Of a DNA stretch of 64,000 nt, positions 4,671 to 16,376 are shown piece by piece. Each line of letters starts with the position of its first letter. The first letter of the stretch is position 1. Both the position numbers and the translations under genes were made by a program. The notes beneath the pieces are model-generated. The model worked only from the letters and a program-made list of their open reading frames with translations, made no database searches and was not told where the DNA came from. Source of the stretch: Candidatus Kapaibacterium sp. (GTDB taxonomy: Bacteria > Bacteroidota > Ignavibacteria > Kapaibacteriales > UBA2268); assembly GCA_963664875.1 (NCBI GenBank), contig OY761611.1:1280001-1344000 (forward strand), in the 5' to 3' direction.

Positions 4671-6005
4671 ATGAGTGAAGAAAGAGTAGTTATAGACAAC
4701 GAAACCAACCCTAAGATTACGGTTGGTATCGACATCGGCACTACAAAAATTTGTTGTTTAATTGGCTCCCCCGCTCCTCAGGACGGCACTCTTAATATTT
4801 TGGGTGTAGGAGTAGCGGAAAGTGAAGGACTCAACAGAGGGGTAGTGGTCAACATTGACAAAACTGTAAAAGCAATCAGAAGCGTGATTGACCAGGCACA
4901 GCAACAAGCAGGTATAAAGATTACCGAAGCTGTTGTCGGCATTGCAGGCGATCATATTGAAGCTTTTCAAACAAGAGGTATAGTAGGGCTTTCTAATCAA
5001 AACCACGAAATCTCTCGTAGCGATGTAGAAAGACTTTTGGAAGACACCAAAAAAGTAAATATACCTTCGGAAAGAAAAATCATCCACGTTATCCCTCAGG
5101 ATTATATCATTGATGGTCAAGATGGCATCACTGATCCTGTTGGTATGAGTGGTGTCAGAATGGAAGCTAATGTCCATGTTGTAACCGGTCTTGTAACTGC
5201 TATTCAAAATATTTACAGATGCGTTGAGCGCTGTGGAGTCAAAGTTACGGATGTTGTCTTAGAACCAATAGCAAGTAGCACTGCTATTTTGAGTGAAGAA
5301 GAAAAAGAAGTAGGTGTCGCTCTGATTGATATCGGAGGTGGCACAACTGATGTAGCTATCTTTGAAGAAAACATCATCAGATATACTTCTGTTTTTGGCA
5401 TCGCAGGAAGACAGGTTACTGACGACGTTAGAAAAGGACTCGGTGTGATAGTAGCTCAGGCTGAACGTCTGAAAAGAGATAACGGTCACACATACCTGCC
5501 TTCTATCATGAAAGACGAAGTAATAATGATACCGGGTATTGGTGGCAGAGCTCCGATGGAAATCAACAAAAGCTATCTTTGCCAGATTATTCAGCCACGG
5601 ATGGAAGAAATATTTGAATTTGCTCTTGCTGAAATCCGCAAATCAGGATTTGAAAACAAGCTTGGTGCAGGCATTGTCCTTACTGGTGGCACTACTTTGC
5701 TAAGAGGCACAGAAGATTTGGCAAGAGAGATATTCAGAATGCCTGTAAAAATTGGAATGCCTTCGCACATGAATTTATCAGGTCTTGCTACCGAAATACA
5801 GTCGCCTGTTTACTCAACTTCTGTTGGTTTGGCTCTTTACGGTTTGCAGGATAATTATGGCAAAGGAGCAACATCCGATGTTCGTTTGAAAGATGTTCAA
5901 ACTAAAAAAGTCAGTGAAGAAGCACCTGAAGTAGAAGAAGCTATGCAAACAAAAGAAAAGCCTTCTATACTAAATAAAATTTCAAATTTCCTAAAAGAAC
6001 TATAG
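4671..6005 (+). CDS. ftsA: Cell division protein FtsA
   Basis: GIDIGTTKI, DIGGGTTD, GIVLTGG, C-terminal amphipathic helix ISNFLKEL. Confidence 0.97.
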   Translation: MSEERVVIDNETNPKITVGIDIGTTKICCLIGSPAPQDGTLNILGVGVAESEGLNRGVVVNIDKTVKAIRSVIDQAQQQAGIKITEAVVGIAGDHIEAFQTRGIVGLSNQNHEISRSDVERLLEDTKKVNIPSERKIIHVIPQDYIIDGQDGITDPVGMSGVRMEANVHVVTGLVTAIQNIYRCVERCGVKVTDVVLEPIASSTAILSEEEKEVGVALIDIGGGTTDVAIFEENIIRYTSVFGIAGRQVTDDVRKGLGVIVAQAERLKRDNGHTYLPSIMKDEVIMIPGIGGRAPMEINKSYLCQIIQPRMEEIFEFALAEIRKSGFENKLGAGIVLTGGTTLLRGTEDLAREIFRMPVKIGMPSHMNLSGLATEIQSPVYSTSVGLALYGLQDNYGKGATSDVRLKDVQTKKVSEEAPEVEEAMQTKEKPSILNKISNFLKEL

Positions 6006-6051
6006 AATATAAGAAATAAATAAGTTGTATAAAAAATTACAGGGTCCAGTG

Positions 6052-7326
6052 ATGCCAGCACAAATCATGATAGACGTACATACCCCTTCCACTGATGGTG
6101 CTCAGATTAAAGTTATCGGAGTAGGCGGCGGTGGCGGAAACGCAATTAACAATATGATTAGCAAAGGTCTTTCCGGTGTGGAATTTATTGCTGCTAATAC
6201 AGATAAACAAGCTTTAGATCACAATTTGGCACAAATCAAAATTCAGATTGGTGCTGACACTACTCGTGGTCTTGGTGCAGGTGCTAATCCTGAAATTGGT
6301 CAAAAATCTGTAGAAGAAAACGAAGACGAAATCAAAGCTGTGCTCAAAAACACAGATATGCTGTTTGTTACTGCCGGAATGGGTGGCGGTACAGGTACTG
6401 GTGGTGCTCCTACTATTGCAAAAATCGGTAGCGAAATGAATGCACTTGTAGTTGGTATTGTTACTACTCCTTTCATTTGGGAAGGCAAAAAACGCATGAA
6501 ACTGGCAGATGAAGGTATTAACTTATTGAGACAGTATGTTGACGCTTTGATAGTTATCCCTAACCAGCGTTTGTTAGAAATTATAGATAAAAACACAAGC
6601 TTCCAGGAAGCATTCCTTAAAGTTGACGAAGTGCTCTATAATGCTACAAAAGGTATATCTGATATTATTGGTTGCCACGGTACTGTTAACGTCGATTTCG
6701 CTGATGTTAAAACAGTAATGAAAGGTATGGGCGACGCTTTGATGGGAATCGGTAGAGCTACCGGACAAAACAGAGCAATCGAAGCTACTAATAATGCTCT
6801 TAATTCTCCATTACTTAATGGTATTTCCATTCATGGTGCAAAAGGTGTATTGGTTAATATCACCGGCGGTTCTAATCTTACTATGCACGAAATTGCAGAA
6901 GCTGTAAGCATAGTAGAAGAAGCTGCAGGCGAAGATGTAAATTTAATTCATGGTGTTGTTGAAAATCCGGATATGAAAGATGAGATAATGGTTACTGTTG
7001 TTGCTACAGGTTTTAATAAAGTTGAAGCCCCTGAAACTACTAATAACAATGGTACAAATCAAGCGAATAATCCTAATCAGACTCCACCGCAAAAACCGGC
7101 TTTTTTTACGCCGACAAGGCCGTCTTTCGGAATACCAAGGACTGACACAGTAGCTACTACTCAGCCTACTCTTACTCGAGTAACAGGCAGTCCGCGGGGA
7201 TATGACGAGCTTAAAAAATATGATGAACCTGCTTTCAAAAGAAAGCAAAGAGAAGTTCAATCGGATGAGCCAGCATCAACTAACTCAATGATGTCCACAA
7301 GTCCGTTTGCAAGAAAAAGATTCTAA
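6052..7326 (+). CDS. ftsZ: Cell division protein FtsZ
   Basis: VIGVGGGGGNA, GMGGGTGTG tubulin signature, NVDFADV, C-terminal DEPAF; start uncertain (6025-6067). Confidence 0.98.
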   Translation: MPAQIMIDVHTPSTDGAQIKVIGVGGGGGNAINNMISKGLSGVEFIAANTDKQALDHNLAQIKIQIGADTTRGLGAGANPEIGQKSVEENEDEIKAVLKNTDMLFVTAGMGGGTGTGGAPTIAKIGSEMNALVVGIVTTPFIWEGKKRMKLADEGINLLRQYVDALIVIPNQRLLEIIDKNTSFQEAFLKVDEVLYNATKGISDIIGCHGTVNVDFADVKTVMKGMGDALMGIGRATGQNRAIEATNNALNSPLLNGISIHGAKGVLVNITGGSNLTMHEIAEAVSIVEEAAGEDVNLIHGVVENPDMKDEIMVTVVATGFNKVEAPETTNNNGTNQANNPNQTPPQKPAFFTPTRPSFGIPRTDTVATTQPTLTRVTGSPRGYDELKKYDEPAFKRKQREVQSDEPASTNSMMSTSPFARKRF

Positions 7327-7462: not shown

Positions 7463-8443
7463 TTAGAGATCGAAAGAATAGTTATATCCAAAATTGATGT
7501 TCCAATACCCTGACACATCATAAGAATATTCTTCATTCGCAATGGGTATTGCAGGTCCTATTTCCAAAATTACTCCATAAAGCTGTAGCTGTAACATAGC
7601 TCCTGTAAAGAAATAATCTTCTGTATAATAGTATTCTATAAAGTATATATCTCCTCTTGATATATAATGGCTTCTTTCAGTCTTTTTTTCAGCTTGATAA
7701 CCTAAACATATTCCTGCGTTTATGCTGAATAAATAATTTTCAGTTGTGTAAAGATTGAATAAGATACTACCCTGTAAGCCTAGCAATTCTCCCCCAGCAC
7801 CGCCAAGTAAAGCAAACTCCAAATCTTTAGTATGCAAACCAACAGCAAGATTAAACAAACCAGGAGTGCCGATTCTAAAGCCTAAATATCCAAAATTGCC
7901 TGAATATGTGTTTCGATAATAGTCGGGTAGCTGATTTGGATTTTGATACTGCTGATTAACCTGCATATCATATAGATAATTTTCTGGATGTTCCTGTTTC
8001 CTATCATTTTTATCTAATTGGAGATTTTGATTCCCGTCAATAATTTGGATTGTCTTTTTTGTGACTGGCCAAGATACTTCATCTTCCTCAAAATAAGTCA
8101 CTTTAGCGATTTGAGATTGCTCTATCTCTAAGACAACACCATCAGAAGCAGTGATCTTATAAGTCCCGTTTGTTCTGTCAACAATACTGCCAATGATTTC
8201 ATATCCATTTGTAGTTTCAATGCTGCACAACAAAGGAAGAGTTTTCTCAATAAGAGATTTATTGATTTCCACAGTCAGCCCGGAGTCAAATTCTTTAAGC
8301 TTGATAGTAGTTTCTGTTTCCGAAAGTTTTTCTCCGAAATAAACATCGCCAGATTTCATTACATACTTTTCGTCTGCATGTACAGATAGCGCAAAGAGCA
8401 TTTGAACAGCAAAAAATAGAATCAAAGTTTTAAGCATTTTCAT
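7463..8443 (-). CDS. Hypothetical exported protein, probable C-terminal beta-barrel
   Basis: Signal peptide ending VHA, two small repeated beta-rich N-terminal modules, alternating hydrophobic strands ending INFGYNYSFDL. Confidence 0.55.
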   Translation of the reverse strand: MKMLKTLILFFAVQMLFALSVHADEKYVMKSGDVYFGEKLSETETTIKLKEFDSGLTVEINKSLIEKTLPLLCSIETTNGYEIIGSIVDRTNGTYKITASDGVVLEIEQSQIAKVTYFEEDEVSWPVTKKTIQIIDGNQNLQLDKNDRKQEHPENYLYDMQVNQQYQNPNQLPDYYRNTYSGNFGYLGFRIGTPGLFNLAVGLHTKDLEFALLGGAGGELLGLQGSILFNLYTTENYLFSINAGICLGYQAEKKTERSHYISRGDIYFIEYYYTEDYFFTGAMLQLQLYGVILEIGPAIPIANEEYSYDVSGYWNINFGYNYSFDL

Positions 8444-8660
8444 ATTAAATCTTACAATAAATGAATGACGTAAATGGTAGAATCATACCGCAATGTGATT
8501 TATTTTTGATATGATAATTACTAAGCATATAATATACGAAAATTCCAAAATATGTAAAAAAGTATATTTCCAACTATCTTCTTCATTTAGTTTTTTTCTC
8601 TGTAACACTCTTAAGAAATCACGCAATGTTATTTCTCGGGAAAATATTTTTCATTTCTTT

Positions 8661-8686
8661 TGTACCCTTTTTATATTTTAGTATCT
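8661..8686 (+). promoter_or_regulatory. Candidate ECF-type (autoregulatory) promoter
   Basis: TGTACC-14 nt-GTATCT upstream of the sigma gene; a second TGTAAC lies at 8601. Resemblance to ECF -35/-10 elements only. Confidence 0.3.
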
Positions 8687-8727
8687 CTTCCTTATGTAAG
8701 ACGAAAACAAAAAACGGTAACGGGATT

Positions 8728-9213
8728 TTGGAACAAGACAGAAAATTTATGGGTTTGCTCGAACCTAACCTTGAGAAACTATGGAGGTTTATACTTTCAT
8801 TTATCAGGGATAAGGACGATGCTAAAGACATCATGAGCGACACCATGCTGGCTGCATACGAAAATTTCAGCAAATTAGAATCGCACGAGGCTTTTCTTAG
8901 CTGGCTTTTTACTATAGCCCGACGCTTAGTTTACAAAGCAGGTAAGAAAAGAGCAGAAATTTTCGGTTCCTCACATTTCGAATTAGATGACTTCAAATCC
9001 GGCAATCTGTCGCCGCAGGAAGTTAGCGAAATGAATGACCTATATTCGGCATTAGATAAATTGCCGTCAGAGCAGAAAGAAGCCATTGTTCTGACCTCAA
9101 TTTACGGCTTCTCTCTTGCCGAAGCAGCCGGGATACAAGGTACAACCCCCAACACCGTGAAAGTTAGAATCTATCGTGCAAAACAAAAACTAAAAGAACT
9201 TTTAGGATCTTAG
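8728..9213 (+). CDS. ECF RNA polymerase sigma-70 factor
   Basis: Region 2 (DAKDIMSDT, FLSWLFTIARR) and region 4 (ALDKLPSEQKEAIVL, TVKVRIYRAKQKL); probable TTG start 8728 (ORF track 8626). Confidence 0.93.
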   Translation: MEQDRKFMGLLEPNLEKLWRFILSFIRDKDDAKDIMSDTMLAAYENFSKLESHEAFLSWLFTIARRLVYKAGKKRAEIFGSSHFELDDFKSGNLSPQEVSEMNDLYSALDKLPSEQKEAIVLTSIYGFSLAEAAGIQGTTPNTVKVRIYRAKQKLKELLGS

Positions 9214-9214
9214 C

Positions 9215-11305
9215 ATGCAAGACTTAGAAAAATATCTCAACACAGCACGAAAAGCAGAACTTGATAATGTTCCTTTTGATAAGGAGAGCATTGACTCGAT
9301 GCTGCAAAAACACAGGGAAGCCGGCTCCCAAAACTTTTTCAAAAAGATAATATCAAAATACGGGAAGCTAAAAATGTATTCTATAATGACTTTTATAACA
9401 GCAACCATGCTGTTCCTTAGCTCTATGCTTTTAAATATTGATGGCGAAAACCCAACTGTTACAGCAAAAAATATTACTATAACTAACGGAAACGATACAA
9501 CTAACATCGAAAACTTCGCATCCACAGGCAAAAACGCAAAAGAAGTAGTGGAAGATTTGGTAAATGAAGTAGAAAAAGTTAAAACTGGTGAAGGTGGAGA
9601 TGATGGTGAATATATAGATGAAATCACTTTCAAAAATCAAGTTTTACAATCTGATACTATAATTGACAGAAGGATAGTAAGTAGGTTGTTAGATGAGTAC
9701 ATGGAGACTCATTCCTTCAAAGACACAACCATTACCTTCTATAGCACCTTAGGGATGAAAGACGAAAGTCTAATTAGATGGAAGGATTTGGAATTTGATG
9801 CTAAAACTTGGGAATTTAGTGCAAATATGAACTACTGCTTGCATATAAAATATGACAAAGATGCTCGTTCTTCTCTACGCAATACTAAAATTACCATTAC
9901 ACCTGAAGATTCAACGTTGATTAGAATCCATGGCGTACTTGAAAAAGAGCTATCTGATTTGGTAGATATACAATTCTTAAAATCACTTGGTTTTGTAGAT
10001 TTAGAAGTGTTTTATTCTTCTTTGTCTGAATATATTCAAAATATAGAATCAAAAACGAAAAATAAAAGTATACTTATGGAAGCTGTAAGTATGTTCGCTT
10101 ACTTGAATAGAAAGTTATTAAACAACCCATTTAAAGGCTATAAATTTAAAGATAGAGGTATAGTATTATCTAAAAATGACCTGCAAAATTTGGATATACA
10201 GATTTTGGAAGATCGTGTGCTTTTCCCATCTACTGAAATCTTTTGCGATGAAAAGCTTAAAACAGAATACTCAGAGATATATAGTGCACACTTTGGAGAT
10301 AGATTTACTCCTTTTGAAGATAGTAATAACAATATGGTAGTTTACAAGAATAGTGGCTATTCATGGAAATGGGTAGAAGGTACAGATACTAACTGGGAAA
10401 AAACTGTTCGTTATATCTATCATGGGTTTGAAAATGACAATGAAGATGATGAAATAAAAAAAGCAAGAATTGGAGGTTATATAGCAAAAGTATATAACAG
10501 TCCATTGGCTGAAAAAAGTATCGCAATTACTCCGGTAACTAATTCTATTGGCATCTCTGTTTCGCTACATCAAAAATATTTACATGATTCAAATCTGCAG
10601 GAACTTAAGGAATTATATAACTTAGGGACACAAAGAAGAATTACTTTTGATGCTCTGAACGATTATCTTGAAAAACCTATTTCTGAAAGAGACAGTAAAA
10701 AAGAAGAGGAATTAAAATTAGCAAGTACTACTGCTGAAATTTTAGCCGATAACGCTCTGCATACTCTACAATACTCAAAACTTATTCCTATAGAAATACC
10801 TGTGCCTTACGGGATACATACAGAGGAAGAGCTTGCAAATCGCGATTATTCAAGTATCACTTTGTGGTACTATCCGGATGCAAAATTCTTGGACGCACTA
10901 CCTGAAGACATTCGTAATCAGATTGTTCACGAGATGGATTTGATAGAATCTGTTATAGCAGGTGAATTGCCGGCAGACGAAGCCTGCAGCGCTCTTGGCG
11001 GAAAAGAATCACTACTTGGTCTTTGTAATCTGACTGAAATAGCTATTAAAGATTTTGTATCTGCTCCAAATCCAACAAGCGGCGATTGCAGAATAAGCTA
11101 TTCACTTTCAAAAGACAGATTTACAAAACTTATGCTTTTAGACAACTCAGGCAGATACGTAAGAGACATTAGTGATTGGACGAATCAGGCAGCAGGAAAC
11201 TATGATTTGAACATAAACATTAGCTCGCTTCAAAGCGGCAAATACATCATAGCGATCTTCACAAACAAAAACGAAAAAGTAAGTTTCAAGCTGATAAAGA
11301 AATAA
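9215..11305 (+). CDS. Putative anti-sigma-like membrane protein with C-terminal T9SS type A sorting domain
   Basis: ATG 1 nt after sigma stop; about 54-aa soluble N-terminus, one hydrophobic helix, large unknown domain, C-terminal APNPTSG...SSLQSGKYIIAI...KLIKK. Confidence 0.65.
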   Translation: MQDLEKYLNTARKAELDNVPFDKESIDSMLQKHREAGSQNFFKKIISKYGKLKMYSIMTFITATMLFLSSMLLNIDGENPTVTAKNITITNGNDTTNIENFASTGKNAKEVVEDLVNEVEKVKTGEGGDDGEYIDEITFKNQVLQSDTIIDRRIVSRLLDEYMETHSFKDTTITFYSTLGMKDESLIRWKDLEFDAKTWEFSANMNYCLHIKYDKDARSSLRNTKITITPEDSTLIRIHGVLEKELSDLVDIQFLKSLGFVDLEVFYSSLSEYIQNIESKTKNKSILMEAVSMFAYLNRKLLNNPFKGYKFKDRGIVLSKNDLQNLDIQILEDRVLFPSTEIFCDEKLKTEYSEIYSAHFGDRFTPFEDSNNNMVVYKNSGYSWKWVEGTDTNWEKTVRYIYHGFENDNEDDEIKKARIGGYIAKVYNSPLAEKSIAITPVTNSIGISVSLHQKYLHDSNLQELKELYNLGTQRRITFDALNDYLEKPISERDSKKEEELKLASTTAEILADNALHTLQYSKLIPIEIPVPYGIHTEEELANRDYSSITLWYYPDAKFLDALPEDIRNQIVHEMDLIESVIAGELPADEACSALGGKESLLGLCNLTEIAIKDFVSAPNPTSGDCRISYSLSKDRFTKLMLLDNSGRYVRDISDWTNQAAGNYDLNINISSLQSGKYIIAIFTNKNEKVSFKLIKK

Positions 11306-12044: not shown

Positions 12045-15000
12045 CTACAGCTTCCCGTAGCCGTTCACACCTGCCTGAATCATCAGACCGGCTGCTCGCT
12101 CTGCCTGTAGAGTGAATGTTTCTATTCTGGCTTCGATAACCTGCGGGTAAACGTTCCCATCTGTTTCTATTGTAAGGAACGGGATATTCATATTCCCGTT
12201 AAATATTTCTGACATACGGTAGCTCGGGTTATGCGTTTGCATGATTTCTAATTTCTTAGCGACTGTCATTTCCGGTGCTGTTATAGCTTCGGAAAATCTT
12301 GTTGGCATACATCCAAAAGGTCCAATATTAATAACACCGCAGTATTTATCTAATGTTTCATGCAGTGCCACACCCAAAGTCAAGCCCGGCTCGCCTTTAT
12401 ACTCCAAAGGAAGAATGTGCTTGCTATGGTCAAGTAGAGGTGCTATCTCAGTTTTCATATACTGATAGTAACCCGATTTTTCGAGTATTTTCTTGACTTT
12501 TTTCTCAGCACCGCGCATAAAGTACTCACGTACAAATCTTTCAAATTTCTTTTTGATAGACTTGTCCGGCTCGAGCAAATTGATTTTCAGCAAATAATCT
12601 ACATAGAAAACCCACTCACTTATGTAAGCATCTTTTACTACAAAGCCCTTTTTAGCAAAGTGTTTATTGAGCCACTTATGAGAGAATCCGTCTCTTCGGA
12701 CATATATCTCCCCTACTAAAGCTACATATTTGGAGTGATGAATAGGTATTCGTGCAGCAACTTTTGCTTTAATATTTTTTGATAAAGTCTCTAATGAAGA
12801 GTAGAGAGAGCCTTTGTCTTTGACAAAGTTTGCTTTTACTTTTTCGTATTCTTCGTAAAATATCTCCAATCCTTTGTCAGGGTCAACTGCATTTGCCATA
12901 ATCGCAGAGCGAACATCATCAAGCACATCACTAACAATAATCGCCTGAATAGCAATTTTAGAGAAGTCACTACCAAAACCGGCAAAACCGTCTTCATTCA
13001 TCAGTGTTACCTGAGCAACATTTTCTAATTTTTTGCTACGAATGACATGGCGCATAAAAACAGGATACTGTCCTAAACGGCAATTCCCTGCACCCTGCAC
13101 ATTGAAGAATGCAACGTATTTCTCATCTCTGCGGTGATTTTCAAGCCAGTCAAGCATACCGCCAGCCATTAGCACTATCGGCAAACACTCTTTACCATTC
13201 GCTACAGAACGACCGTATTTCAGAACTTCCGGTGTAGCTTCCGGTAGAGCATGAGCATTATATCCTATAGCTCTGAAAGCAGCGGCTACCATCTCAGAAG
13301 CCAAATCACCCATCGATGGTATCAGAATAGCAACTTCAGGACTTTCCAATGGTATTTTTTTGCCGTCGCTCGCAATAAACCATGACTGCTTGTCATCGAG
13401 TATAACATCTGCAATTTGGAAATCATCTTTTTTATCTTCTATTTTTTGCTGCTGCATTTTGCGATAATTCGATATTACATCTAAGGCAGCATCTATTCTC
13501 GTATTTATGCCCGCATCTGCCGTGTGTCCGTCGAGTTCTAAGGTAAGTGAAGGTTTTGTACCCATCATCTCCCTAAACGTCGTTAAAAGCATTGAATCAG
13601 GGCCACAAGAGAAATTAGAAATATAAGTCGCAAATAGTTGAGGGTGTTCCTGAACTATTTTAGCTGCTTTTAAAATTTTCTTACCGCCTTCCCAATACAT
13701 ATTATCTTCAATCGGCAAATCGCGATAATCAAATAAATCAAAAGGAACTACATATACACCTTTAGAAGAAAATTTGCGAGGAATACCTTTGTTCGCAGTA
13801 TCAGTGAAAGCATTATAAGGTCTGCCAAGTATCACAATAGCAGTTCTTTCGGGGTCTTCTTCCAACATGGCTAGGAACTTACCACCAAGTTTGCGTTTTT
13901 CAGCTTGATATTCATATTGAATTTTTACTGCTTCTTCGAAAGCTTTGTCAATCCTGCTGCGGTCTGAAACACCCATTTTAAGGGCAGATTCTATAAATCT
14001 TTCCTTCTCTTTTTGCAATCCGTTAGCAAAGTTGAGATGCGGAGCTATTACCTTATCTAAATCAACTAAATCTTTGAAAGCCTGTTTAAGATAATATGTT
14101 TCTCCGGACAAAAACACACATGTACAATTAAAATCAAGCCTTTGGTATGTACCTTCTTCAACCTGCATCTCAAAAATCGACGGAATAAAATAATAATCAG
14201 GATTTAGATCAATCAACTCACGAAAATACCCCAATGATAACTGAGCAGGGAAGCAGAATGATGTAGCTTCTCTCTCCTGTCCCTCAGGATGAAGTTTCTC
14301 AGGGAGAACGACTTTAAAACCAAGCTTCGAAAAGAAATTAAAGTAAAGCGGATAAAGGCTATGAGTATGGAAACTTAAATTTATTCCTACAGTCGGAGCA
14401 TTGTCAGGTAGATTTACACTCTCGCAGAATGATTCATAAGTAAGCTCATTTCTTCTTTTAACATAGTCAAATTCTGTTATTTCTGAGCGCTCACCTGAGA
14501 GATTATAATACTTATCGCAAGCACCACCGAAAGGATATGTTTTCCCGTCAATTTCTATTCTTGCGATACTGCATTTTAAATCACATTTTTCTTTACCACC
14601 GGCACAAATAAAGTTCTCTTTATAGCTAACTTCTCGTTGAGACAGAGCCGACAGGTCAAACTCTTTCTTTGGCATAATCCCCAGTTCAATTCGCTCCGCT
14701 ATGCCCAGAGCCACACCAAAAGCCCCCATCAGTCCCGGGTCCGGTGGCACAATTATATCTGCACCTGTGAGAGCAGCCATTGCAACCGGAATCGCTTTAT
14801 TATAACATACACCGCCTTGCATAAATATCTTATTTCCGATATTTCTGTTGCCTTTTACTCTATTTACATAGTTCATGCAAATAGAATAAACCAATCCGGC
14901 AACTACGTCTTCCTTACTGATACCTTCCTGCATTGCTGTTTTAATGTCCGAACTGATAAAAGCAGCACACTGGTCGCTAAAGTTTGGAGGACGCTTAGCA

Positions 15001-16376
15001 GAAAAAGCGATGTCTTGTATCTCTTTTACATTTATCCTTAATGCCTCGTAGGCAGCTTCTTCTATAAATGAGCCTGTACCAGCAGAGCAGGCTTCATTCA
15101 TAGCATAATCAGCAGGAACCTGATTAACGATATAAGTATATTTTGCGTCCTGGCCGCCAATTTCAAAGATTGTATCTACATCTTTGTCAAAATGGACAGC
15201 AGCGTTGGCGTGAGCAATAATTTCATTTATAATACCATCAGTGCCGGCATGCAAGCCGGCAATATGTCTTCCCGAACCTGTAACACCAACTCCAATAATC
15301 TTTGCATCATTGCCAACTTCTTCTAAAATTGTTTTATAGCAGTCTCTTGCTGCACGAATAGGGTCACCGGATGTGTAAAGATATATAGAAGAGATAATTT
15401 CTAGATCTGTAGTGTCTATCAGAACAGCTTTAGTTGTAGTTGAGCCAACATCGAGCCCAAGAACATATTTTTTGGCGACATCATAAGTGCCACGCTTTGC
15501 ATCGCTGAAAGTAACTTTATCTTTGAAATTATCTAATGGCTTTAAAAAGTCGAAAGAGCTTTGAGCTTCGATAAATACTTCATCAGTTTCCTGAAGTGTA
15601 GATGTATCGTGCTCAGCAGCATAGATAGCAGCACCAAGAGCTTCTAAATATGGAGCTTCTTCAGGAATAAATAAATCAGAATATGATTTTTTTAGGTAGC
15701 TCATTACTGAAGCATTTTGGCTAATACCGCCGGCAATGAGAATAGATTCGCTATTGAGTTTCGCCATTAGTTCATCAGCTTTGTCAGCTATCATTTCACA
15801 TAGACCGGCTGCAACTTCGCCTTTAGGAATACCTTTGTTTAGGGCATGAGTGCAATCAGACTTACAAAAAACAGAACATCTGCCCGACACATGAAAAGGC
15901 TCTTTATCGCGACTAATTTGCATAGTCTCCTCGAGCGACAAATCCATTCTTTTGATTTGCTGCATAAAGAATTCGCCTGTTCCTGAGGCACATTGATTCT
16001 TAGTATGAACATTGGATATATGTCCTGTGGCATCGAGACTGTAAACCATAAAGGTTTCGCCACCGAGTGAGGCTACACCGTCGAACTTTTTATCTTTAAA
16101 ATAAAATTGTAAAGCTGATTCTGTTGCTTCCGGTTCCGAGATATTAGCAATATTCAAAATATTACGGAATTTTCTGCCTGTGGCAGCAATAGGATATTTT
16201 GATGAGTATTTCGAGTTTAATATATCTAAAAGTTTGTGTTTGGGGTCGCCATTATGAGCCATATTTTCTGCATCAATAACAGAATAACTATTATCTTCGT
16301 TTCTTTCAACTAAACAATATGATACGGATGAAGCACCGAGGCAAACACCAAAAGCTCTTGTCATAACACAAACCAT
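12045..16376 (-). CDS. 2-hydroxyacyl-CoA dehydratase activator-like fusion (two BadF/BadG/BcrA/BcrD ATPase domains plus DUF2229-type regions)
   Basis: CASGTG/CSVFC and GLDVGSTTTK, EIGGQDAK, NEACSAGTG, QCAAF; CFP, FSCGPD, GKECLP, GPFGCMP in the C-terminal half. Confidence 0.88.
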   Translation of the reverse strand: MVCVMTRAFGVCLGASSVSYCLVERNEDNSYSVIDAENMAHNGDPKHKLLDILNSKYSSKYPIAATGRKFRNILNIANISEPEATESALQFYFKDKKFDGVASLGGETFMVYSLDATGHISNVHTKNQCASGTGEFFMQQIKRMDLSLEETMQISRDKEPFHVSGRCSVFCKSDCTHALNKGIPKGEVAAGLCEMIADKADELMAKLNSESILIAGGISQNASVMSYLKKSYSDLFIPEEAPYLEALGAAIYAAEHDTSTLQETDEVFIEAQSSFDFLKPLDNFKDKVTFSDAKRGTYDVAKKYVLGLDVGSTTTKAVLIDTTDLEIISSIYLYTSGDPIRAARDCYKTILEEVGNDAKIIGVGVTGSGRHIAGLHAGTDGIINEIIAHANAAVHFDKDVDTIFEIGGQDAKYTYIVNQVPADYAMNEACSAGTGSFIEEAAYEALRINVKEIQDIAFSAKRPPNFSDQCAAFISSDIKTAMQEGISKEDVVAGLVYSICMNYVNRVKGNRNIGNKIFMQGGVCYNKAIPVAMAALTGADIIVPPDPGLMGAFGVALGIAERIELGIMPKKEFDLSALSQREVSYKENFICAGGKEKCDLKCSIARIEIDGKTYPFGGACDKYYNLSGERSEITEFDYVKRRNELTYESFCESVNLPDNAPTVGINLSFHTHSLYPLYFNFFSKLGFKVVLPEKLHPEGQEREATSFCFPAQLSLGYFRELIDLNPDYYFIPSIFEMQVEEGTYQRLDFNCTCVFLSGETYYLKQAFKDLVDLDKVIAPHLNFANGLQKEKERFIESALKMGVSDRSRIDKAFEEAVKIQYEYQAEKRKLGGKFLAMLEEDPERTAIVILGRPYNAFTDTANKGIPRKFSSKGVYVVPFDLFDYRDLPIEDNMYWEGGKKILKAAKIVQEHPQLFATYISNFSCGPDSMLLTTFREMMGTKPSLTLELDGHTADAGINTRIDAALDVISNYRKMQQQKIEDKKDDFQIADVILDDKQSWFIASDGKKIPLESPEVAILIPSMGDLASEMVAAAFRAIGYNAHALPEATPEVLKYGRSVANGKECLPIVLMAGGMLDWLENHRRDEKYVAFFNVQGAGNCRLGQYPVFMRHVIRSKKLENVAQVTLMNEDGFAGFGSDFSKIAIQAIIVSDVLDDVRSAIMANAVDPDKGLEIFYEEYEKVKANFVKDKGSLYSSLETLSKNIKAKVAARIPIHHSKYVALVGEIYVRRDGFSHKWLNKHFAKKGFVVKDAYISEWVFYVDYLLKINLLEPDKSIKKKFERFVREYFMRGAEKKVKKILEKSGYYQYMKTEIAPLLDHSKHILPLEYKGEPGLTLGVALHETLDKYCGVINIGPFGCMPTRFSEAITAPEMTVAKKLEIMQTHNPSYRMSEIFNGNMNIPFLTIETDGNVYPQVIEARIETFTLQAERAAGLMIQAGVNGYGKL

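Follow-up and report, generated by a model that had tools for sequence, protein, structure and literature searches.

A putative membrane-anchored anti-sigma factor ending in a type IX secretion sorting domain is paired with an ECF sigma factor in Candidatus Kapaibacterium

We analysed a 64,000-nucleotide window of Candidatus Kapaibacterium sp. (contig OY761611.1, positions 1,280,001 to 1,344,000 of the forward strand), in which a gene encoding an extracytoplasmic function (ECF) sigma factor (8749..9213) is followed by a gene (9215-11305) encoding a 696-residue protein. Window features are on the + strand unless stated otherwise. The 696-residue protein combines a conserved N-terminal head, a single predicted transmembrane helix, a highly variable middle domain and a genuine type A C-terminal sorting domain (CTD) for a type IX secretion system (T9SS), and the linkage to a sigma factor gene is conserved throughout its family. 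We give an even chance to the proposal that this protein is a membrane-anchored anti-sigma factor, the constant C-terminus of which would be recognised by the outer-membrane machinery of the T9SS while its variable middle would act as the sensor.

Comparison of gene order across the family indicated that the sigma pairing is far beyond chance. The original prediction, made from the DNA sequence of the window, had described an ECF sigma gene coupled to a membrane-anchored CTD protein, and this coupling was found to be conserved; of the 44 family genes examined, 43 have a gene for a related ECF sigma factor directly upstream and in the same orientation. This was the case for 3/3 genes in the genome to which the window belongs, for 5/5 ortholog pairs (the 1-nt gap being kept in all of them), for 19/20 loci from the same order and, in three further families of the class, for 16/16 loci, one of which holds a fusion. 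The single exception lacks its N-terminus and lies ~950 nt from the start of its contig. The 20 same-order loci were taken from the best rows of a phylum-wide search with the full-family profile, the window's own genome being left out, and the 16 loci were picked among 120 listed matches to the module preceding the CTD (pre-CTD) so as to spread over the three families. At the same-order and other-family loci, the two genes mostly overlap by 4-8 nt or lie less than 30 nt apart. In the window, a single base separates the sigma stop codon TAG (9211-9213) from the next ATG (9215-9217), exactly as originally read. The fused case (L093:2727-3788, +), in a genome of another family of the class, is a 353-residue open reading frame (ORF) that joins a full sigma domain (residues 13-178) directly to a pre-CTD and CTD (residues 199-351) and contains neither head nor membrane helix; it may reflect a deletion or an assembly artefact, or be a genuine fusion.

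An ortholog search over 5.8 billion proteins identified 6 relatives sharing 42-92% identity with the window protein, and 5 ortholog pairs were placed on four genomic loci, one of which carries a tandem duplicate. The family profile, run on 1.84 billion cluster representatives, matched 833 proteins at a threshold of E<=1e-3, of which 194 also passed E<=1e-10. A C-terminal module of ~170 residues, made of the pre-CTD and the CTD, is common to the 150 best matches. On the basis of these profile matches, the protein is a member of an unannotated family comprising at least 150 clusters at 50% identity. Pfam analysis of 20 members returned Por_Secre_tail alone. The hydrophobic stretch comes late in most of the family: in 119 of 154 family proteins, an initial methionine is followed by a first hydrophobic stretch at residues 35-80, the other 35 being mostly fragments. 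When the full-family profile was used across the phylum, with only 3 candidates scored in each genome, ordinary CTD proteins drowned out the family, and it was replaced by a profile of the pre-CTD module. The latter matched 64 of the 301 sampled genomes of the class, with up to 5 matches per genome. Matches were distributed over families f1 to f4, which belong to the window's own order, and over families f9 (17/21), f58 (7/23) and f59 (17/35); the module was not found in the other sampled families of the class. Pre-CTD matches in a phylum-wide sample were restricted to 14 of 401 genomes, all of them from the window's own order.

The complete genome of the window's organism allowed family members to be set against ordinary cargo. 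A total of 142 ORFs matched the hidden Markov model (HMM) of the C-terminal module, and in 120 of these the first 20 residues include a hydrophobic stretch. Exactly 3 ORFs scored above 100 bits; all three have a head of ~50 residues followed by a membrane helix, and the same three follow ECF sigma genes. The four mutually closest sigma factors of this genome each precede a protein displaying the same head motif, the fourth partner being devoid of a CTD. This fourth partner (genome 721347-722513, - strand) is a 388-residue protein with the head motif and a membrane helix, encoded after the sigma gene at 722506-723141, indicating that the head domain also occurs beyond the CTD-bearing family. 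The sigma-linked proteins encoded at three further loci (L072, L073 and L074) combine a head with a membrane helix and a CTD but lack the pre-CTD motif; the design combining an anchor with a CTD is therefore somewhat wider than the family defined here.

Codon analysis showed that the N-terminal head is part of the protein. When codons 1-53 were compared with those of the 5 orthologs, between 2 and 5 differences were found at first positions, 1 or 2 at second positions and 12 to 15 at third positions, indicating that this segment is translated and constrained. Together with the length of the hydrophobic segment that follows, which is that of a transmembrane helix, this places the start of translation at M1 rather than at Met54 or Met58, the two start sites that had been named beforehand as undermining the proposal. 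Residues 1-75 are 79-100% identical among the window protein and its five genomic orthologs (76-96% with a metagenome protein, P0001, taken in, which provides the lowest value), although orthologs may be only 42-49% identical overall. A head motif, L-[DE]-x-Y-[FL]-x-x-A-[KR]...P-L-x-S-x-x-E-[IL], is kept across members with no more than 15-25% overall identity. The head (residues 1-53, 9215..9373) is predicted to be cytoplasmic, with helices at residues 2-13, 23-35 and 42-49, and is a candidate sigma-binding domain.

As originally described, the charged N-terminus is followed by one hydrophobic segment, which is the sole such segment in the protein (residues 54-73, 9374..9433). It consists of an uncharged hydrophobic run of 20 residues and was modelled by AlphaFold2 (AF2) as a helix spanning residues 52-72. 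Among 114 full-length family members, the helix starts at a median residue of 53 (range 40-68). The uncharged run has a median length of 19 residues in the family and reaches 18 or more in 89/114 members; in ordinary CTD cargo from the same genome (n = 120), the median is 13 and a length of 18 or more is reached in 8/120 proteins. This difference in length argues for a membrane anchor rather than a signal peptide. Judged by the position and length of the hydrophobic segment, the protein has no cleavable Sec signal peptide at its very N-terminus, and reading of the family N-termini revealed no consistent small-residue motif after the helix, in agreement with the earlier remark that no clear cleavage site could be seen. 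Lysine and arginine together average 3.63 over the 15 positions preceding the helix and 1.51 following it, and they are more numerous on the preceding side in 98/114 members. According to the positive-inside rule, this corresponds to the N-in, single-helix topology originally proposed, which is also the topology of single-pass anti-sigma factors. The helix is followed by a variable linker of ~75 residues (74-150, 9434..9664), which is probably disordered; the AF2 model has pLDDT values below 50 at residues 74-85, 99-108 and 118-147, and linker identity among orthologs is 24-75%, with indels.

The identity of the C-terminal domain was established both by HMM and by fold. Residues 618-696 (11066..11305, including the stop codon) matched TIGR04183 with 32.3 bits (cut-off 23) and PF18962 (Por_Secre_tail) with 32.0 bits (cut-off 27), in line with the type A CTD recognised by eye at the outset. 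This domain is the only match of the protein in Pfam and NCBIfam; nothing in residues 1-617 is covered by either database, in keeping with the ~530 residues originally described as an unrecognised domain. The modelled domain superimposed on the CTD of mirolase (8qb1_A; Z 10.3, rmsd 2.1, 76 residues aligned), on PorU (6za2_B; Z 10.2, rmsd 2.2, 86 aligned) and on the CTD of NucA in the translocon (8glk_D; Z 9.6, rmsd 2.5, 75 aligned, 27% identity), the last of which was also matched by Foldseek with a TM-score of 0.70. Generic immunoglobulin (Ig)-like folds scored similarly to the solved CTDs; the sensor domain of RsgI4 (7cg5_A, Z 9.0) was one among many generic beta-sandwich matches. Nearly invariant positions of the CTD in 114 members include P618, N619, P620, G646, G661, G675 and Y677. 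The family-specific pre-CTD module (residues 506-617, 10730..11065) bears the signature LIPV...LWYxPxxEFxxALPERYR...C...C, and its nearly invariant positions in the same 114 members are P525, W551, L562, P563, E573, C591 and C604. The two cysteines, C591 and C604, sit just before the CTD; conserved cysteines are confined to the outer part of the protein, in keeping with the N-in topology.

The middle of the protein (residues 151-505, 9665..10729) is a folded domain of unmatched fold, periplasmic or external, showing a cassette-like variability. The full-length AF2 model (pLDDT 81.1, pTM 0.72) has a confident body from about residue 150 to 696, made of a mixed alpha/beta domain and the CTD sandwich; residues 150-607 modelled alone reached a pLDDT of 85.8 and a pTM of 0.86. 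Apart from the CTD, Foldseek searches with the full-length model gave only matches with a TM-score of 0.1-0.2, and those with residues 150-607 gave nothing at E<=1e-3. A wide VIA search with residues 150-607 returned a best Z of 8.0, on a 53-residue helical hairpin only. Hairpins of the MexA/AcrA/EmrA type (model residues 309-367, Z 6.8-7.9) ranked just below, and this arrangement is a common one. Parts of the middle domain were barely tested in these fold searches, and we therefore do not claim a new fold.

Pairwise comparisons revealed a mosaic pattern of evolution, with at least 3 types of middle domain between constant ends. Two tandem copies from one genome (P0003 and P0006) are 100% identical in the head and helix, 95% in the pre-CTD and 96% in the CTD, and 27% identical in the middle domain. 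Similarly, P0002 and P0004 have identical heads (100%) and middle domains with 27% identity. Middle-domain identity is 26-35% in most pairs and 55-92% between closer relatives. The locus L001:2562-8106 is a tandem duplicate of the whole pair of sigma and putative anti-sigma genes; its near-identical ends and middles of 27% identity suggest that either the ends underwent gene conversion or cassettes were exchanged. Constant ends flanking a variable middle are what would be expected if the ends meet conserved partners, the sigma factor on one side and a CTD receptor on the other, and the middle reads something variable.

The sigma factor itself was identified by family models. The ORF matched Sigma70_r2 (PF04542, 42.5 bits, cut-off 24), Sigma70_r4_2 (PF08281, 54.3 bits, cut-off 25.7) and TIGR02937 (75.0 bits, cut-off 42.9), and contains sigma-2 and sigma-4 domains only within the ~150-200 residues typical of ECF (group 4) sigma-70 factors. 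A profile of the sigma family run against solved structures matched ECF sigmas, the best being 5uxx_A with 104.3 bits. The gene start at 8601 given in the original prediction is wrong; the mechanical ORF begins at 8626 and crosses a conserved promoter-like element at 8661-8691. The start codon used by orthologs, ATG in 5 copies, reads ACG in the window (within 8710-8751) and is followed by a 2-nt insertion, so that TTG 8728 or ATG 8749 becomes the start that can be used. The sigma factor of the window probably starts at one of these two codons, giving 154 residues from ATG 8749 and perhaps 7 more from TTG 8728. Alignment of the upstream regions and of the sigma proteins defined a conserved leader at 8692..8748.

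The element upstream of this leader (8661..8691) has the form TGTACCC-N17-CTCTTCC, with an ECF-style -35-like GTACC, and is present in 6/6 ortholog upstream regions; its conservation marks it as a putative promoter. A strict pattern, GTA[AC]CC-N16-18-CTCTTCC, was found at a single site of the 3.83-Mb genome, this very element, and a 38-nt weight matrix scored 45.2 at this site and 19.1 at the next best site. Relaxing the pattern added one site, GTAACC-N17-GTCTTCC at genome 3126761 (- strand), 50 nt 5' of a gene for a 268-residue membrane protein. Similar elements, TGTAACC or TGCAAC, lie upstream of two paralogous sigma genes. Autoregulation of the sigma factor through its own promoter is plausible. 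The motif named in the original prediction, TGTAMC-N14-GTATCT, did not hold, as its GTATCT half is not conserved among orthologs. A scan for this motif upstream of T9SS genes had been suggested; the genome gave 3 matches against ~1.4 expected from a composition estimate, which is no enrichment, and none of them was upstream of SprA or PorV. Regarding the same motif, the PorU upstream region contained just a GTAACCTTTT at -60.

Taken as a working model, the proposed anti-sigma factor would operate as follows. The sigma and anti-sigma genes would be co-transcribed as a pair. The product of the second gene would be a type II inner-membrane anti-sigma factor, with the 53-residue head holding the sigma factor at the membrane and the single helix acting as the anchor. 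The flexible linker of ~75 residues would take the folded, exchangeable sensor domain across the periplasm, and the constant pre-CTD and type A CTD would be recognised by SprA, PorV and PorU, which form the outer-membrane part of the T9SS. Either engagement or export of the outer part, or binding of a ligand to the variable domain thus presented, would expose the tether to proteolysis; an RseP-type protease would then cleave within the membrane, and the freed sigma factor would act at least on its own promoter. Components for such a pathway were detected above cut-offs in the complete genome, which encodes SprA (786.3 bits), PorV (256.8 bits), PorU (864.7 bits) and an RseP-type protease homologue (272 bits). 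The start at M1, the transmembrane length of the hydrophobic segment, the N-in topology, the genuine CTD and the conserved pairing agree with the trans-envelope regulator put forward in the original prediction; what is only indirectly supported in that prediction is the anti-sigma nature of the head.

Structure prediction of the sigma factor with residues 1-56 of its partner gave a score of 0.44 (individual runs 0.50, 0.44 and 0.44), the best of 3 controls being 0.00, which weakly supports a complex. The runs agreed in at least 52% of contacts, with a partner pLDDT of at least 49. For reference, the mark set for this score let through 116 of 157 solved complexes and 2 of 215 mismatched pairs; 18 of the 157 and both passing mismatches did so at 0.60 or below. 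The anti-sigma role is suggested by gene position, topology, conservation and this weak complex score, and the head would bind sigma on the same grounds. A word-based search with residues 1-80 retrieved only the same 6 relatives. Look-alikes of anti-sigma type in the Atlas (DUF4179, RsgI_M, zf-HC2 and DUF3600) had values of 0.80-0.82, which is chance level, and were discarded.

Several observations weigh against this working model. The complex score of 0.44 falls in a band where, unless there is a strong prior, wrong predictions outnumber right ones. Known anti-sigma domains (zf-HC2/ZAS, RskA, FecR_N, RsgI_N and others) were absent from the protein in Pfam and NCBIfam; Pfam analysis of 28 family heads at E<=1 returned no anti-sigma family, and a head profile run against the PDB returned no anti-sigma factor. 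The head is free of cysteine in 107/114 members and therefore has no zinc motif. On the genomic side, no further target of the conserved promoter element was found in the genome, and none upstream of SprA or PorV, so that no wider regulon emerged. The motor of the secretion system is also elusive: GldM, GldL and GldN were not detected by models in the complete genome, and the best score for GldK was 64 bits against a cut-off of 350. The GldL model exceeded its cut-off in 19/81 genomes of the phylum and in 0/19 genomes of the window's class in that sample (the window's own genome included), one of which gave a sub-threshold match. The export route is therefore non-canonical or its motor is too divergent to be seen, and this argues against a simple picture in which the motor pulls on the tether. 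Finally, known T9SS cargo passes through a free periplasmic intermediate, and we know of no precedent for the export of a protein that is still tethered to the inner membrane.

The use of the CTD can be pictured in more than one way. One possible arrangement, which we hold to be somewhat doubtful, is that the outer part is a real T9SS substrate, exported while the head holds the sigma factor; transport would then break the tether, or the tethered variable domain would become a surface sensor in a protein spanning the envelope. An alternative without export, to which we assign a still smaller though real share of belief, is that the CTD is a periplasmic Ig-like domain which docks onto PorV, SprA or another receptor, so that protection of the anti-sigma factor follows the occupancy of the secretion route. 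Docking rests on the same architecture, no tethered protein has to be exported, and the undetected GldKLMN makes pulling by a motor less certain. Outer-membrane transducers are moreover reported to protect anti-sigma factors from proteolysis (PMC11637429). Docking would resemble the way in which TonB-dependent transducers protect FecR-type anti-sigma factors. Docking alone accounts less well for the strong constraint on all type A CTD motifs, which is that of real cargo, and for the large, well-folded, cassette-variable domain, for which a position facing the outside or a variable ligand is the simpler explanation.

A different explanation dispenses with the anti-sigma function altogether. The protein could be ordinary cargo with a long conserved N-terminal extension serving in targeting or slow membrane release, the sigma factor only driving its expression. 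Autotransporters, which have extended signal peptides, offer an analogue. No known anti-sigma domain was found, support for the complex is weak, and the sole strong match to the promoter element is that of the operon itself, which means that the protein could be its main output; all three points are compatible with this explanation. We nevertheless consider it improbable, because the hydrophobic segment is of transmembrane length (median 19 residues against 13 in the 120 cargo proteins), the family N-termini have no consistent small-residue cleavage motif, and the linkage to a sigma gene, with overlapping or abutting stop and start codons, holds in 43/44 cases. Neither would ordinary cargo explain why the four closest sigma factors all precede the same head motif, one of the partners having no CTD, nor why the head is 100% identical in tandem copies with middles that are 27% identical. 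A chance juxtaposition or mis-annotation, in which the protein starts at Met54 or Met58 and the pairing is meaningless, is scarcely credible given the third-position differences in codons 1-53, the conserved head motif, the late hydrophobic stretch in 119/154 proteins and the pairing in 43/44 cases, and nothing was found in its favour.

The gene divergent from the sigma operon (7463..8443, - strand) encodes a 326-residue protein with a signal peptide, which resembles an outer-membrane barrel. In the Atlas, it was linked at 0.94 to a DUF481-named cluster (175 shared features) and to a cluster with OMP_b-brl on 18% of its members (170); a match to Lepto_7_Nterm was sub-threshold (32.2 bits, cut-off 43). 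One to 3 tandem copies of this gene are found upstream of every ortholog pair, and it may be a target or a partner of the system. It was rejected as a general partner, being absent from 36 more distant family loci. In the window's own genome, 3 of the 5 members of this barrel-like family divergently adjoin an ECF sigma/anti-sigma operon, at two loci (including 3686939-3688890, +). Further away, two upstream ORFs (window 4671-7326, +) resemble FtsA and FtsZ, and a downstream ORF of 1443 residues (window 12045-16376, -) resembles a fused BadF/BcrA/HgdC-type ATPase protein; these resemblances were noted by eye alone.

No published account of an anti-sigma factor carrying a T9SS CTD emerged from full-text literature searches. 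The ECF classification (Casas-Pastor 2021, PMC7826278) makes no mention of Por_Secre_tail, PF18962 or TIGR04183 in the available part of its supplement, another part of which may hold a group description, and the main text contains neither T9SS nor Por_Secre_tail except in the title of one reference. The original statement that no described system with this architecture was known has to be qualified by two conceptual neighbours, the Dma factors (PMC10927553) and the PorA-PorXY-SigP pathway (PMC7712824), neither of which combines an anti-sigma factor with a T9SS CTD.

Judged by its design, the Dma family is the closest published analogue. The anti-sigma factor Dma1 is reported to extend to the outer membrane by way of a disordered tether in the periplasm (PMC10927553). 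Dma proteins share with the present family a cytoplasmic sigma-binding N-terminus, as proposed here for the head, one inner-membrane helix, a long disordered periplasmic stretch and an outer-membrane C-terminus, and the same paper proposes proteolytic release and reports several paralogues per genome (PMC10927553). A long, probably disordered tether after the helix was found in the window protein, where low-pLDDT stretches coincide with a variable, indel-containing region. In contrast, the C-terminus of Dma is described as an eight-stranded outer-membrane beta-barrel, whereas the present protein carries a folded domain of ~460 residues and a CTD beta-sandwich; no barrel family such as OMP_b-brl_2 was found in Pfam and no barrel in the AF2 model. 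The protein is therefore not a member of the Dma family, though it may work alike. The two families are set apart here by their C-terminal architecture. The T9SS has 0 occurrences in the Dma paper (PMC10927553).

The second neighbour is the PorA-PorY/PorX-SigP pathway of Porphyromonas gingivalis, in which a PorV-binding CTD protein is reported to act upstream of an ECF sigma factor, so that the state of the T9SS or of the cell surface is fed into transcription (PMC7712824). The proposed system would do likewise. PorA differs in that it is presented there as a free surface protein with a cleaved signal peptide that signals by a two-component route, whereas here the CTD protein itself would be tethered to the inner membrane beside the sigma factor. 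FecI/FecR/FecA and the ECF/anti-sigma/SusC-like trios of Bacteroidota resemble the proposed system in that a single-pass anti-sigma factor contacts an outer-membrane machine through its periplasmic C-terminus and regulated proteolysis frees the sigma factor (see also PMC11637429). Unlike in these systems, no FecR or DUF4974 domain was matched here at E<=0.1, and the T9SS, not a TonB-dependent transducer, is presumed to be the partner in the outer membrane. The RsgI/SigI pairs of cellulolytic Firmicutes are paralogous pairs in which RsgI has a short N-terminal anti-sigma region, one helix and exchangeable outer sensors. Several paralogous pairs per genome and exchangeable outer modules are also found here, but RsgI, which lacks a secretion tag, acts in monoderm cells, and the present protein has no RsgI_N match. 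Finally, FlgM, a soluble protein that is itself exported, ties the activity of sigma-28 to a working export machine, which is the logic put forward in the original prediction. In the present protein, export would be open to the outer part alone, the part that would bind sigma remaining inside the cell.

How an inner-membrane regulator reads the outside of a diderm cell has been a live question since the Dma factors. The family described here provides a model defined by sequence alone: one end, putatively sigma-binding, and the other, carrying the secretion tag, are constant, and the middle is exchangeable. If this tag is put to use, the family would represent the first T9SS cargo that remains tethered to the inner membrane and a new coupling of transcription to export; it would also give a handle on what the CTD recognises in lineages without detectable GldKLMN. 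Should the outer part really be exported, the system would act either as a checkpoint on secretion in a diderm export system or as a single polypeptide spanning the envelope via the T9SS, and the cassette-like middle domains would, in a lineage without a detectable GldKLMN motor, constitute a repertoire of surface receptors.

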